From an uncultured virus (IMG/VR IMGVR_UViG_3300042289_000700) (Duplodnaviria; Heunggongvirae; Uroviricota; Caudoviricetes): a stretch of DNA of 20,000 nucleotides. Where the stretch lies: the IMG/VR virus record IMGVR_UViG_3300042289_000700. One strand, written 5' to 3'. This document shows, one piece after another, positions 11,884-20,000 of this stretch; the stretch's first letter is position 1; the number at the start of each line of letters is the position of its first letter. The position numbers and the translations under genes were made by a program. The notes below the pieces were generated by a model. It was not told the DNA's origin. It worked only from the letters and a program-made list of their open reading frames with translations, and ran no database searches.

Positions 11884-12030
11884 TTAGTCTTGGGTTTCTC
11901 CGCAGGTTTTGCATCTGAGGATATGGACTACCCCATGATCAATCCGTTCAATCTTTTCCGATCCACAGTAGAAACAGGTCTTGGATTGCGGCTTGCGGTA
12001 AACCTTTTTCTTCTTTTTTTCTTCGCTCAT
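11884..12030 (-). CDS. Small Zn-ribbon protein (48 aa)
   Basis: MSEEKKKKK...CFYC...CKTC. ATG 12030 overlaps the endolysin stop (ATGA). Confidence 0.7.
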   Translation of the reverse strand: MSEEKKKKKVYRKPQSKTCFYCGSEKIERIDHGVVHILRCKTCGETQD

Positions 12031-12707
12031 TTTTTGACTGTTGATGGGTTGATTCGCACAAAGTTGCGTACTAGCGAGGCAGACCGTGTTTTGAGCCACA
12101 CCCCGTCCCCAGACTTGCTGTCCCGCGTCCCCCTGCCGTTTGTGTTGCCCTCGACACATTGGAACCTTCCGTTGGGAAGGACCTTGGTCACAATCCCGAT
12201 ATGGGAGAAGTCAAAAATAACAAAGTCCCCAACATGGGGCTTGGCCTTGTTAGAAAGAACCTTGGCCGTAGCTGGTCTTTCTTTAGCCCAAGAGATATAG
12301 CCAAACGCCGCCGCTGTCCTCGGTCTCCACTTCTCAGGGATCATTACCTTGAGCCCCAACCACTCAACATTTTCGGGGTCTTTGAGCCACTCGCGAACTA
12401 CCCATGAAGTCAGGGCGGCACACCATGGCCAAGAAGCGGGCTTGAGGTTGGTGGCGGCTTGATACTTCCGCACCTGTGGACCGTTGTTGTTGCCCCCCAC
12501 TTCTTTGACTCCCACTTGGGACAGGGCAATCTTGGCTAGGTTCTCAAGAGCCTTGGGAGTCTTCTGTTTCGGGGTTTCCCTCTTCTTTTCGACGGGCAAC
12601 TCTGGCTTTGAGTTCTCCTTGGATTCGGATGGCAAGCTCGGCAAGGACGGCGCTTGGCCACCTTCTGATTCTATCCCAAGTAGTTTCTGGATTAACTGCC
12701 AAATCAT
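12027..12707 (-). CDS. CHAP-domain endolysin (peptidoglycan amidase/endopeptidase)
   Basis: Motifs QVGVKE..NNG, PWCAA (catalytic Cys), GDFVIF, SHIGIV (His) and VEGNT. N-terminal amphipathic helix followed by a linker. Confidence 0.9.
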   Translation of the reverse strand: MIWQLIQKLLGIESEGGQAPSLPSLPSESKENSKPELPVEKKRETPKQKTPKALENLAKIALSQVGVKEVGGNNNGPQVRKYQAATNLKPASWPWCAALTSWVVREWLKDPENVEWLGLKVMIPEKWRPRTAAAFGYISWAKERPATAKVLSNKAKPHVGDFVIFDFSHIGIVTKVLPNGRFQCVEGNTNGRGTRDSKSGDGVWLKTRSASLVRNFVRINPSTVKK

Positions 12708-12729
12708 CTGGGTTACTGCTCACCCATCA

Positions 12730-12758
12730 ATTATAACAACGGCAAACTCGTTTGCCAA
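12730..12758 (-). promoter_or_regulatory. Promoter TTGGCA-N17-(TG)TATAAT upstream of the endolysin
   Basis: -35 at 12758-12753 and perfect extended -10 TGtTATAAT (-10 at 12735-12730). An inverted repeat GGCAAAC-ga-GTTTGCC covers the -35 and spacer. Confidence 0.75.
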
Positions 12759-12769
12759 TATCCCAATTC

Positions 12770-12949
12770 CTAGAAATCCGCTCCACCTCGGACTCCAACG
12801 GAGACGCCTGTTTTTCCATCATGGCCCCGCTTGGTGATTTTTGCGGTGAAGCGGAGGGAACCGAATAAACGGACAAGGAAATGTCTGCGATCTTCTTGGT
12901 TCCCCTTGGTAAATATTGCTTTGAGAGTTTCATTGTTGATCTTTTTCAC
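12770..12949 (-). CDS. 59-aa cationic peptide in the lysis cassette (absent from the ORF track)
   Basis: The GTG start overlaps the upstream TGA (GTGA). Sequence MKKINNETLKAIFTKGNQEDRRHFLVRLFGSLRFTAKITKRGHDGKTGVSVGVRGGADF. It ends just before the endolysin promoter. Confidence 0.65.
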   Translation of the reverse strand: MKKINNETLKAIFTKGNQEDRRHFLVRLFGSLRFTAKITKRGHDGKTGVSVGVRGGADF

Positions 12950-13293
12950 TTGCGCTTGCGCTTTGTTGCGGGCTTTTTGACTTCAATGGCCCTGCGAATC
13001 TCGGTGTAGGTCACGGGACCAGCAACCCCATCTTCATCGGTATTGACCAAGGCTTGGATCTTCTTGACTCCCTTGACGTTGATTTCGTTGGTAACGTAGT
13101 TAACAATGGCGAGAATCAAAGCAACGACAAATCCCGTAAGGCTCACTTGGTCTACGGACTCGGCCAGCTTGGGGTCAATCATGGCCAGCTTGCTAACCAC
13201 GGCGGCAATCCCCATGGCAATGAACGGGGTGATGACCCCGCCCATCTTGGAAACCAGAAAAGCCAGAAGTTTGTCTTTGGTTGTCGCGATCAT
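12946..13293 (-). CDS. Two-TM holin-like protein with C-terminal peptidoglycan-binding-like motif
   Basis: Two hydrophobic segments followed by VKKIQALVNTDEDGVAGPVT (DGxxGPxT) and a basic tail. Confidence 0.65.
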   Translation of the reverse strand: MIATTKDKLLAFLVSKMGGVITPFIAMGIAAVVSKLAMIDPKLAESVDQVSLTGFVVALILAIVNYVTNEINVKGVKKIQALVNTDEDGVAGPVTYTEIRRAIEVKKPATKRKRK

Positions 13294-13574
13294 TGGTCGA
13301 TTTTAACCCGCTGAACGGCGGATTCAACCGTAAAACGAATCAAGGATTCAGAGGCATCAATGCCATTACGCAGGGCCGCGCTGGTGAGTTTTTTGACAGC
13401 GGCTTCGCGCTTTTGTGCGCCAGTTTTGCTGGTGTCGGCCAACTCGCGGACGATGTCCAAGGCAAGTGGGAGGAGGGACGCGGCGGCATCCACAAAGAGT
13501 TCGCGGAGGATCGGCCCGTAGAAGGCCCAAATCTTGGAAGGAATACCCAGAAGGGTGGCGAAGAATGATTTCAT
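13290..13574 (-). CDS. LL-H-type holin-like protein
   Basis: Hydrophobic N-terminus plus a TGAQKREAAV...IRFTVESAV motif resembling the LL-H holin family. Confidence 0.6.
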   Translation of the reverse strand: MKSFFATLLGIPSKIWAFYGPILRELFVDAAASLLPLALDIVRELADTSKTGAQKREAAVKKLTSAALRNGIDASESLIRFTVESAVQRVKIDQ

Positions 13575-13588
13575 AGATTAAAGCTAGA

Positions 13589-13873
13589 CTAGAATCCTTT
13601 GGATTTCAAGTAATCTTCGATTCTTTTTGTGCGCTCGTCAATTCGGGCCAAGGTCTCGCTGCGGGTTTGGTTTTCTTTATTAATCATCTCAATTCGCGCA
13701 TCCTGCTTGGCATCATTGGTTTGTATATGTCTCATCTGCTCTGGTAGAACAATCCACCCATTAAGTGCCGAAAACAAAGTAATCATCAGAGCGATGCCAG
13801 CGACCAGTTCGCTCATGGTCAGCTTTACTCCGCGCTCCAGACCTCTGCGTCTTGGTATTTCTTCGATACTCAT
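13589..13873 (-). CDS. Single-TM coiled-coil membrane protein (lysis-associated)
   Basis: ATG 13873 overlaps the upstream TGA. TM segment LVAGIALMITLFSALNGWIVL is followed by a coiled coil ending LARIDERTKRIE. Confidence 0.7.
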   Translation of the reverse strand: MSIEEIPRRRGLERGVKLTMSELVAGIALMITLFSALNGWIVLPEQMRHIQTNDAKQDARIEMINKENQTRSETLARIDERTKRIEDYLKSKGF

Positions 13874-14841: not shown

Positions 14842-14863
14842 CTTGATGAATAGAGACTAGCTA

Positions 14864-16123
14864 TTAGGGAACCAAGTAGCCATATCCGCTACCGCTGGCG
14901 CAAGGAACAAGGTCGTTCGCAAGGCTGCAACGGAGGTGGATAATGTAGTATCCCCACTCAGGGAAGATCTGCTTGACGGCACAGGCCATCTTCGCCCGCC
15001 AGTAACCCGAGTTCTTGTCAGGATTGCACTGTTTATCATACTCGTTGATCCAGCGGAAATCTCCGCGATAGTTCTGAGCATCATAGACCAGCTTGCCGAC
15101 TTTGAGGTTAGGATTCGGGACGAGCCACTCCAGCGCCTTCGGATGGAAGATAACCGTGGAGGTGTACTTCGCATTCTTGTAGGCGGGGTTGACGATAGCT
15201 TTGGTGCCTTTGAAGGCCGAATCCGTGATATACGGAGGGACTTCGACAAGGGTGCCGCCAGCGCCATCGTTGAAGCGTTTCGGGAACGGACGGCTGTGGA
15301 ACACATAACCAGCGTAGCTCTTCTTGGGAAGAAGCATCTGGCCATTGGTGCCCAACAGATCGTTCACGCGATCACTCCAGCGGATGTCCTGACGGATGTC
15401 CTCGTTGATCTTGATCATCTGTTCGATGGTGGCACGATCCGACATCACGTTGAAGACGGGAGCGCCGTCATCGGTGACCGCATCGCCGTCATCTCCAGCG
15501 TTGTCCGAGTAGAGGCTGTCGTAGATCTGACGCAGAACGCCAGTCGTGAGAACGCTCGTCGGGGCCGTGAGACCAGTGATCGTGGCATTGTCACCACTAA
15601 AGGTGACGCCAGTTCCAATCTGGGTGTCAAAGCCAGCTTCGACGCTCAAGATATTGACGTTGGACAGATAGTCGTTGTCGTAACGCTTAATCCACTCGAC
15701 GTTGACGTTGTCGGCCAAGATCTTGATGTAGTTGTTGACATCATCAATCGGGAAAGCCGAAGTACGAACGTCTTCCAAGCAGATCCAATCCGACTCCACA
15801 GCCTGATGGCGGAGCGAGAAGTTTTTCTGGTCGAAGGCGTAGCCGACTTTCTTGACGGGAGCCAAGCAGGAGTTGTCCTGACCAGCTTCGCCAGTGACAC
15901 CGATGGACTCCCAACCACTGCCAGAGGCGATGGTACGGCGAGCAATAGTGTTGGTGATCGTTTTGCCCATGTTGTCGGGGAAGGCCGACTGGGTAACAAG
16001 ACGAAGGTAGGGATCTTTATAAAGACCCAAGCGATGGGTGCCAAGGGCAATACGTCCAGTCTCTCTCTGGAAATTGTCGTTAATGCTCTCGCAAGTAACT
16101 GAAGCAGCGTTAGGTGCTGACAT
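14864..16123 (-). CDS. Major capsid protein
   Basis: 419 aa, located after portal and scaffold, with strongly biased codons, its own promoter and a downstream hairpin. Size and composition are compatible with an HK97-type fold. Confidence 0.8.
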   Translation of the reverse strand: MSAPNAASVTCESINDNFQRETGRIALGTHRLGLYKDPYLRLVTQSAFPDNMGKTITNTIARRTIASGSGWESIGVTGEAGQDNSCLAPVKKVGYAFDQKNFSLRHQAVESDWICLEDVRTSAFPIDDVNNYIKILADNVNVEWIKRYDNDYLSNVNILSVEAGFDTQIGTGVTFSGDNATITGLTAPTSVLTTGVLRQIYDSLYSDNAGDDGDAVTDDGAPVFNVMSDRATIEQMIKINEDIRQDIRWSDRVNDLLGTNGQMLLPKKSYAGYVFHSRPFPKRFNDGAGGTLVEVPPYITDSAFKGTKAIVNPAYKNAKYTSTVIFHPKALEWLVPNPNLKVGKLVYDAQNYRGDFRWINEYDKQCNPDKNSGYWRAKMACAVKQIFPEWGYYIIHLRCSLANDLVPCASGSGYGYLVP

Positions 16124-18048: not shown

Positions 18049-20000
18049 TTATGCTTCGGTCGCCATCGGGGGTCGGCCTGCGGGCCTAGCCGTTTTCTCC
18101 AATATAGAACTCCGCGTCTTGAGATCATTGAGAGCCATTTGCTGACGGATGGTTTCCATCTTCTGCGCGTGGGTCTCTTGATTCATCATCCGCTTCTCTT
18201 GCATTTCGGCCAGTTTAAGTTGCGCCTTTTGGAATTCCATTTCCATCTTGGGATCAATCTGCTGCTGTCCACCCTCCTGCGGGGACATAGCTTGTTCCTG
18301 CATTTGGCTTTGTTCGGCCATGGCACGATTGATGACCTGTTGTTCCAACTCGTCCACATAAGCTGTGACGTTTTGAAGCTGGCGCTTGAGTTCGTTGACT
18401 TCTTGTTTGCGGAAGCTGTTGGTTGAGAAAAGAACCAGATGTTCGGTGGTGTGGTCGGCGGTAGGGCGAAGGATAGCCATGGCTTGCTCGTCTGGAATTT
18501 GTTGCTGACGATGCATCTCAATAATCTCAGCCATGAGCGGAATGTGGGCTTCGATATGCACAGCGTGGTTTTGACTATCATGCACCATCTGTTGGATTCC
18601 GTTGCGGAGGTTGCCGTTTTCCAAATTAGCGATATCAAAGTCAATCGTACGGCGCGGGCCCTTCTCCGAAACGAAGAGGTTGACCTTCTGCCAACCCACT
18701 CCAGAGATACCAGCGATGACGGAACGAAGGGTGTTTTCTTTGCCCTTTTCATCCATCAGGGAATAAAGCTCCATCAACTGCTTGGAGGCCATCTCGGTCA
18801 TTACGGGGCTCCCATCTCCCATGGCTCGGAAGGCTGTAACCTTCAAGAACTGGCGCATCCGCTCCACACTTACTCCCCTGCGTAGACAACGTTTGCGGAA
18901 TTCTAAGGCTAGGCGTCCACCCTTATCGTTTGCCGTTAATAGCGGGCTTACCGCCCTACGATACTGCTCGGTCAGAAGTTTGTTATATGGAGTATAAAAG
19001 AGTTCCAGTGCTGCGGCGTTGAGCGTGGATTCTTGACGGGCCTGCTGGACAACTTCGGTAGCCGATCTTGCCTGTCCTTCGGGCGTGGTCTGGCGCGAGC
19101 GGTAACTACCTGTATTATTCTGCAACACCTGACTCATCAGGTTGTAAACAGGAAGCCCCTGAGTTGCTACTGCGGGAGGTTGAAGTTGGATCGGGGTCAG
19201 CCCACTAGGGATGAACGTATAAGGCCCGACCTCAATGTATTGAAAGTCTTGGATGGCTTCGGCGTCACCCTGCAACTGGATGAGACCAGAGGTGATGGCG
19301 GCTTGGGCAGCTTGGCACAACACGCGGTTAGAAATCTGGATCTGGTTGTAGATCTTCTGCTTGAGTCCGCGAATGGTATGGAATGTCCCCTGACCAACTC
19401 CGTAGGTGAAGATAACAAAGCACTGATTTACGTTTCCATAGCGGCTGTAGCGTTCGTAGAGGAAGTCCGAAGAATCCCGACTCCCAATTAGCTGGGTGAA
19501 CTTACCATCAAACTCCTTGTTATAACCATAGACCAACTGGGCTCTGTGGTAGGCCGACTCCCCAGCGTAAAGATCGTTCTCCTTGATTTCGCGCTCAAAG
19601 TCTTCCCAGTGAGCGGTATAGTTTTTCCACTGATCTCGCTTGGTTGAAGCCTTCCAAATCGCCTGCTTAACCGCATTAAGATTCCAACCAAGGGCTTTGG
19701 CCGCTTTAGGATTGCGGATGTAGTTGTAAAGCTCGCTCACACTCATGGAGCGTTGGACAATAGCTACTTCGATAGACTCATCTGAAACCTTGGTGTCGCG
19801 GGCCACCTTGAAGTCTTTTAGCCCACAGGGCTCCCAGAAGATGGAGCGTTCATCGGGCCACATGGCCACCCCAACCCCGTCACCCACAAACTCCCTAGAG
19901 AGGAGTTGCATGTTATAGGCGTGGTCGCTCCACTCTTTGAGCATCCAGTCGAATTCTTCAGAGATGATCTCAGAGTCCTCGTTGGAGTCTCCTTCGTAGG
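18049..20000 (-). CDS. Portal (head-tail connector) protein, 5'-truncated
   Basis: The frame stays open upstream of ATG 19944 to the window edge. It has a RSATEV motif typical of podovirus portals and a Q/M-rich C-terminal coiled-coil barrel. Confidence 0.8.
   Translation of the reverse strand, partial: YEGDSNEDSEIISEEFDWMLKEWSDHAYNMQLLSREFVGDGVGVAMWPDERSIFWEPCGLKDFKVARDTKVSDESIEVAIVQRSMSVSELYNYIRNPKAAKALGWNLNAVKQAIWKASTKRDQWKNYTAHWEDFEREIKENDLYAGESAYHRAQLVYGYNKEFDGKFTQLIGSRDSSDFLYERYSRYGNVNQCFVIFTYGVGQGTFHTIRGLKQKIYNQIQISNRVLCQAAQAAITSGLIQLQGDAEAIQDFQYIEVGPYTFIPSGLTPIQLQPPAVATQGLPVYNLMSQVLQNNTGSYRSRQTTPEGQARSATEVVQQARQESTLNAAALELFYTPYNKLLTEQYRRAVSPLLTANDKGGRLALEFRKRCLRRGVSVERMRQFLKVTAFRAMGDGSPVMTEMASKQLMELYSLMDEKGKENTLRSVIAGISGVGWQKVNLFVSEKGPRRTIDFDIANLENGNLRNGIQQMVHDSQNHAVHIEAHIPLMAEIIEMHRQQQIPDEQAMAILRPTADHTTEHLVLFSTNSFRKQEVNELKRQLQNVTAYVDELEQQVINRAMAEQSQMQEQAMSPQEGGQQQIDPKMEMEFQKAQLKLAEMQEKRMMNQETHAQKMETIRQQMALNDLKTRSSILEKTARPAGRPPMATEA

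Follow-up and report, generated by a model that had tools for sequence, protein, structure and literature searches.

The window, by which we mean the whole 20,000-nucleotide stretch of DNA that was analysed, carries a lysis cassette on its minus strand in which an LL-H-family holin-like gene is followed by a gene for a 115-aa protein, by ORF A and by a CHAP-domain endolysin gene. The holin-like protein (13290–13574) matches PF09682 above the cut-off (E 3e-7). The 115-aa protein (12946–13293) has two hydrophobic segments, no Pfam match and a C-terminal DGxxGP motif, which we take to resemble peptidoglycan-binding domains. The endolysin (12027–12707, 226 aa) matches PF05257 (E 6e-8) and is assigned to the endolysins by PHROG (E 8e-12). 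Beyond the holin-like gene, also on the minus strand, lies a gene (13589–13873) for a protein of 94 aa that has a hydrophobic segment at its N-terminus and probably a coiled coil; from its sequence it is holin-like or resembles an orphan i-spanin, and its PHROG matches are weak (E 0.02–0.26).

ORF A (12770–12949, minus strand) encodes 59 amino acids, and its GTG start shares bases with the TGA stop of the 115-aa gene, to which it is coupled (GTGA). The original prediction of a GTGA-coupled ORF of this length and sequence was borne out, and ORF A is a real, conserved gene of the lysis cassette. Its product comprises a helix, a linker, a second helix with the pattern D-x-R-x-F-L-x-R-L-x-x-S and a beta hairpin that ends in G-G-x-D-F. 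An AlphaFold2 model based on a 50-row alignment (mean pLDDT 70) places two short helices at residues 6–14 and 24–31 and the strands of the hairpin at residues 33–39 and 48–54, which gives 17 helical and 14 strand residues. The peptide had been described as a basic amphipathic helix followed by a beta hairpin. Its net charge of +8 (13 K/R, 5 D/E) and the predicted hairpin agree with this description, but the RRHFL helix is just moderately amphipathic (moment 0.42–0.50).

Neither a hydrophobic segment (19-residue hydropathy maximum 0.32) nor a signal peptide was found in ORF A. The product contains no Cys, and so lacks the N-terminal lipobox Cys of u-spanins and o-spanins. The outline of an i-spanin, an N-terminal transmembrane domain followed by a periplasmic coiled coil, is absent from ORF A and from the overlapping ORF B described below. 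Tat signal peptides consist of a twin arginine followed by an uncharged h-region. A Tat signal at RRxFL was considered and rejected, because T, S, K, N, Q or P stands in place of the first Arg in distant members, and a charged stretch follows.

Overlapping frames in the cassette

ORF B (12727–12933, minus strand; 68 aa) lies over ORF A in the +1 frame, which is the frame of the upstream 115-aa gene. Its product is Ser/Pro-rich, with a C-terminal helix, a W-D-I-G-x-R-x-C-x-W tail and a conserved Cys near the C-terminus; no hydrophobic signal, transmembrane domain or lipobox was found in it, and its predicted structure is mostly coil (pLDDT 62). A set of 87 loci plus the window yielded 47 distinct copies by motif, 46 of them usable and one dropped for N. 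The 13 loci that gave no copy by motif include one pattern miss that has ORF A (L057) and 12 that lack it. Both frames are open in all 46 distinct close loci, and A is conserved in each of these as well as in distant representatives.

Several observations bear on selection in the two frames. The ORF B ATG is kept in 46/46 loci, though the ORF A residue above it may be H, D or N. Third positions are fixed in several codons for Gly and Ala in ORF A, which preserves ORF B residues. Across 78 distinct loci, ORF B is open throughout its overlap with ORF A. In the tail that runs past the ORF A stop (12727–12769, minus strand), the W, D, I and G residues are invariant in all 78, with the codons for D, I and G changing at third positions only. 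A site-class test with a codon bootstrap was applied to the 22 loci that yielded both control genes, giving 231 pairs that are not independent. Sites that are silent in A and non-silent in B have a divergence of 0.28 (0.21–0.36), compared with 0.62 and 0.66 in two flanking genes, and sites that are silent in B and non-silent in A have a divergence of 0.31, compared with 0.17–0.18 in the control genes. Change has therefore moved between codon positions and is not reduced overall. RNA structure was considered as the source of the constraint on silent sites of ORF A and rejected, since the 40 loci analysed out of 78 gave no signal (mean z -0.19 and +0.80), and it does not account for the conserved W-D-I-G tail either. 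The fixed start of B, the fixed third positions in codons of A, the site-class shifts and the retained W-D-I-G tail indicate that A and B are both under selection in the window clade.

These data can be set against the reading that ORF B, or a product of frameshifting or read-through from A into B, is the functional protein and A a shadow frame. We regard this as highly improbable. ORF B is selected along its whole length and shares the frame of the membrane gene before it, and the ORF A stop is TAG in 78/78 loci with a fixed context. However, the non-synonymous sites of ORF A are themselves constrained in the site-class test, ORF B is missing in 29 of the 95 distinct ORF A types (C-termini), and the +1 frame is interrupted by stops in a distant clade. 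In addition, the gene upstream of ORF A ends in TGA at 42 of 46 loci and in TAA at the other 4, and 40 loci gave no sign of folded RNA close to the ORF A stop (mean z -0.19). The reading is already largely ruled out for the A family as a whole. Because 29 of the 95 types lack B and only A persists outside the window clade, ORF A is probably the older gene and ORF B a younger overprint in this clade. Conservation in favour of the overlapping 12727–12933 frame had been named at the outset as an observation that would count against the interpretation of ORF A; the outcome is mixed, as this frame does prove to be selected in the window clade, but so does A, and elsewhere A alone is kept.

The second ATG of ORF B (region 12818–12820) is near-invariant (45/46), follows a G-rich stretch and could start a short form of ~30 aa. 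Long Ser/Pro-rich ORFs in alternative frames also lie under the probable capsid and portal genes (14857–15345, 15646–16050 and 18186–18752, minus strand), so an open shifted frame alone says little in this genome.

ORF C (12544–12723, minus strand; 59 aa) lies over the N-terminal extension of the endolysin and was compared in 44 distinct loci. Both frames of this overlap look constrained (silent-in-C divergence 0.36, 32/44 loci). A similar ORF is present in a distant clade, and in L068 and L069 ORF C is in frame with the CHAP domain. The cassette appears to hold two adjoining dual-coded stretches overlooked by standard annotation.

Spread and architectures of the ORF A family

A family profile search of 1.84 billion representatives (50% clustering) returned 30 at E<=0.001, most of them 50–68 aa long; the three long proteins among them (P0025, P0039 and P0040) look spurious. 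The family core consists of D-x-R-x-F-L-x-R-L-x-x-S followed by a hairpin with a variable loop, ending in G-G-x-D/E-F. Searches of Pfam and PHROG with 50 members gave no PHROG match and five single-member Pfam matches at E 0.014–0.04. A fold search with the ORF A model returned nothing at E<=0.001 in BFVD or the PDB, the ORF A profile had no match among PDB sequences, and the ESM Atlas gave no usable match for A or for a 157-aa fusion described below. No match for A, the capsid, the 115-aa protein or either fusion was found in a cultured-phage collection. A was not found in GTDB, where the endolysin matched one 36-kb contig in a MAG labelled Methylococcus; this contig has a lipoprotein cassette without A and is not treated as evidence for the host. 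No paper on such a family was found in a search of the openly accessible literature. The lipoproteins and signal peptides of these phages suggest a two-membrane host, and the gene content gives an impression, no more, of a PVC-type host. All runs listed from the study behind the window are freshwater metagenome runs, with no RNA run among them. On sequence grounds, A is a widespread, previously unnamed lysis-cassette family with an overprinted partner.

In the no-B lineages inspected, ORF A directly precedes the endolysin gene, and its stop codon often shares bases with the endolysin start. It keeps this position across phages that are not related to one another: in the close clade, in a different 71-kb phage (L252/L253), in terminase-adjacent cassettes (L314/L325/L351), in a lipoprotein clade (L215–L235) and in L273, L278 and L340. 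The endolysins that follow, leaving aside the downstream gene of L273, are of four profile types (CHAP, phrog_894, phrog_315 and phrog_7), and this diversity argues against binding of A to one particular endolysin.

Four architectures were distinguished. In the window clade, A occurs with B; of its 66 types, 60 showed no lipobox in the 1.3 kb upstream, five were too short and one gave an out-of-frame lipobox match. A second architecture has A alone, for example in L252/L253, which belong to a complete 71-kb genome (G017). The third has the order holin, lipoprotein, A, and 20 of the 29 no-B types were flagged for a lipoprotein, of which 18 share one family (hairpin with GGADF or GGMDL), one is different (L323) and one is probably spurious (L278). 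The fourth is a fusion, found as a 157-aa protein in L327/L328 (two alleles) and as a 216-aa protein in L323.

In the fusions, a holin-like part with two hydrophobic segments is followed by a basic linker, a third hydrophobic segment ending in A-x-A, and an A domain that ends in F or W. The fusions were located by the helix motif, so their match to it is built in; their C-terminal motif and their place before the endolysin are independent of this choice. In L327/L328 the stretch from the holin part to the core of the A domain contains no start codon, and the fused A domains score only 24–26 bits. No longer fused form was found between 161 and 2000 aa, a result of little weight. The orientation of a membrane segment is set by its flanking positive charge (the positive-inside rule), and by this rule the fused A domain would be periplasmic, cleaved or not. 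In two lineages, whose holin parts are related, the A domain lies behind a segment judged by eye and hydropathy to be signal-like, and this placement suggests that the domain acts outside the cytoplasm.

The C-terminal strand was tallied in 94 distinct C-termini, one of the 95 having been dropped for X. The last residue is hydrophobic in all 94 and aromatic in 84, mostly Phe as in the window copy, with Leu in the other 10. Gly(-5) and V/I/L(-7) are invariant in 94/94, position -9 is hydrophobic in 91/94, and the odd positions stay hydrophobic or Gly; a bulky residue at -3 occurs in 18/94 only. The beta-signal consensus is given in the available text of PMC10945584 as polar-x-G-x-x-hydrophobic-x-hydrophobic. 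This pattern is present in full in 11/94 C-termini, those of the RIGGRADF clade, which retains the odd-position register, and the window copy departs from it with Gly at -8 and Arg at -6. The C-terminus of A thus reads as a conserved one-faced strand and not as a textbook beta-signal. The terminal aromatic residue and alternating strand on which a beta-signal-like end had been proposed are conserved, but the canonical motif is missing from the window copy and from most of the family. The oligomeric barrel first suggested for the peptide gains no support from these data.

According to the available part of a report on Llp antibiotics (10.64898/2026.09.25.754295), these inhibit BamA through peptides in which just the register and a hydrophobic anchor are retained. 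Since register alone can suffice for BamA binding, a BamA route is left to A. We nevertheless think it very doubtful that A mimics a beta-signal, binds to strand 1 of BamA and, by jamming or subverting outer-membrane protein assembly, weakens the outer membrane before lysis. The conserved terminal aromatic residue and amphipathic register, the Llp example and the one clade with the full consensus are consistent with such a mimic, but most members have Ala or Thr at -3, which makes for a weak dyad, the end of A is tightly conserved whereas Llp C-termini are described there as hypervariable, and inhibition of BAM would probably be slow for timed lysis.

It is likewise quite unlikely that A is a plain cationic disruptin in the style of phiKT gp28 or LL-37, acting by charge and an amphipathic helix, with the hairpin and terminal Phe incidental. 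Free members (50–68 aa, median net charge +7 among 50 aligned) resemble gp28 as described in the available part of its preprint (bioRxiv 10.1101/515445; 56 aa, +7), and their type of cassette position is the same. Yet the C-terminal strand of A is conserved position by position, gp28 is predicted there to be mainly helical, and the fused A domains have net charges of -1 and 0. As these domains are not cationic, A is not a simple gp28-like peptide, contrary to the parallel first drawn.

Spanins and lipoproteins in the window and its relatives

The original prediction placed ORF A in a cassette that lacks a lipoprotein spanin. A lipobox scan of the six frames of the window found none, though it did pick up the lipoproteins of G010 and L219. 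In the complete genome G017, which has A, four lipobox scan matches were obtained, none a convincing gene. Three complete close relatives (G002, G003 and G005) carry a conserved Pro/Trp-rich lipoprotein (L243:15853–16143, plus strand, in G003) that lies 21–26 kb from the cassette among replication-type genes, two genes past a signal-peptide coiled-coil protein. No neighbour with a transmembrane domain plus coil was found for it among the G003 ORFs conserved in the three genomes, and neither it nor the 73 G003 ORFs scanned, out of 89 picked, matched a spanin family. This lipoprotein could be a superinfection-exclusion gene or a displaced spanin gene. The 94-aa protein of the window cassette has the i-spanin outline without an adjoining lipoprotein and could be an orphan i-spanin, so that an unusually split pair formed by it and the distant lipoprotein is possible. 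These two genes temper the label 'spanin-less' for the window clade: no spanin is recognised in the cassette, as claimed, or in the complete relatives, but the distant lipoprotein of the three genomes makes a complete absence less certain.

Two large late-region proteins of G003 (L244:4230–6107 and L244:11155–12768) have signal-peptide-like N-termini, which is unusual for virion proteins, and one of them has weak tail-fibre matches. In the same genome, a LAGLIDADG intein splits a gene (L243:14246–15880) that is intein-free (215–216 aa) in G002 and G005.

Lipoproteins of two other, unnamed kinds occur in related cassettes. One is a 72-aa family with a Trp-rich beta hairpin containing GGADF, which is coupled to A (L219:4771–4989, plus strand; relatives in L258–L272 and L340). 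It has no i-spanin neighbour and no Pfam or PHROG match, and the likeness of its hairpin to A is confined to the GGADF motif (8 columns, hhalign probability 15%). The other (L250:5802–6050, plus strand, in G010; also L076–L087 and L237) is encoded by the only gene between those for the holin and the CHAP endolysin; it lacks a C-terminal transmembrane domain, a single strand-like stretch is predicted in it, and it is a candidate spanin substitute. In 12 loci with a related endolysin and without A (L076–L087), this lipoprotein occupies the holin-endolysin slot, and a search of the complete genome G010, which is of this type, found no A.

These contexts also bear on the idea that A leaves the outer membrane untouched and acts at the inner membrane as a regulator of lysis timing or endolysin release, as an antiholin or holin helper that could be compared to Lcc6 of LambdaSo or to a periplasmic antiholin. 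In two lineages A forms a single protein with a holin-like part, elsewhere it is coupled to the gene of a membrane protein, the tight conservation of D-x-R-x-F-L-x-R-L-x-x-S suggests a specific partner, and the available account of LambdaSo offers a precedent for an extra holin-level factor. However, the upstream membrane proteins differ between lineages (a 57-aa holin with a lipoprotein, the 115-aa two-segment protein or a 72-aa holin) while A is constant, and spanin-less genomes such as G017 would be left without an outer-membrane factor. We therefore consider an inner-membrane regulator improbable.

Proposed role of ORF A and comparison with known systems

We give about an even chance to the reading that A is a lysis factor for the outer-membrane step that works through its conserved helix and hairpin and not by charge alone. 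In phages without ordinary spanins, A would serve this step after reaching the periplasm, as it presumably must. Fused forms might arrive there by way of the Sec-type segment, and free cationic forms could pass through the lesion made by the holin or cross the inner membrane on their own. Release through the holin had been put forward as a requirement, but it need not be obligatory: the available part of the gp28 preprint states that holin function is not required (bioRxiv 10.1101/515445). In the periplasm, the helix would rest on the membrane surface, and the hairpin would pair by its edges with those of further copies or of a partner lipoprotein. After the wall has been cut, the paired hairpins would enter the outer membrane and make it unstable. 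In the window clade, ORF B would be a younger accessory that perhaps modulates A or the holin.

A more specific version is tentative and, on balance, unlikely in our estimate. It would make A a new class of outer-membrane lysis protein beside spanins and helical disruptins, whose beta-signal-like two-strand hairpin assembles in the outer membrane by itself or together with the hairpin of a partner lipoprotein, possibly via BamA. The protein would be either a free cationic peptide or an inner-membrane-tethered fusion, the latter resembling an inverted unimolecular spanin.

No spanin was recognised in 91 of the 677 genomes of a survey cited in the available part of the gp28 preprint (bioRxiv 10.1101/515445). 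How spanin-less phages breach the outer membrane is an open question, for which the A family gives a candidate of 50–60 residues. Its natural variants (free, lipoprotein-paired, signal-fused and overprinted) are directly testable in a lambda Rz/Rz1 complementation assay.

Disruptin gp28 of Escherichia phage phiKT, so far as the available text of its preprint describes it (bioRxiv 10.1101/515445), is the closest in size (56 aa, compared with 59 for A) and charge (+7, compared with +8). Both proteins have no signal or transmembrane domain and are encoded next to the endolysin in a lysis cassette with no recognised spanin. The description of gp28 as helical and like an antimicrobial peptide sets it apart from A, with its conserved beta hairpin and terminal aromatic residue, and A, unlike gp28, has neutral fused forms and an overprinted second gene. 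The window copy shares with disruptins the small, cationic form without signal or transmembrane domain, which its fused homologues do not, and it does not have a predominantly helical amphipathic fold.

The unimolecular spanin T1 gp11, as portrayed in the available part of PMC6139136, is a beta-rich outer-membrane lysis factor, as is proposed here for A, and an uncleaved A fusion would, like gp11, join an inner-membrane anchor to an outer-membrane element. However, T1 gp11 has an N-terminal lipobox and a C-terminal transmembrane domain, neither of which is present in A, and the fused forms of A have the reverse order. Rz/Rz1, from the same source (PMC6139136), resembles A/B as an overlapping gene pair in the 0 and +1 frames within a lysis cassette, and the conserved Cys near the C-terminus of ORF B adds to this likeness, but neither A nor B has a transmembrane domain or lipobox. 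Beta-signals and Llp C-terminal peptides share with A an amphipathic last strand and an aromatic end, as far as the available texts describe them (PMC10945584; 10.64898/2026.09.25.754295). In contrast to the beta-signal (PMC10945584), A mostly lacks Gly(-6) and a polar residue at -8, has the invariant Gly(-5) instead and forms only two strands. ORF A therefore differs from spanins, from the helical fold of disruptins and from canonical beta-signals, yet it may work like a disruptin or a spanin.
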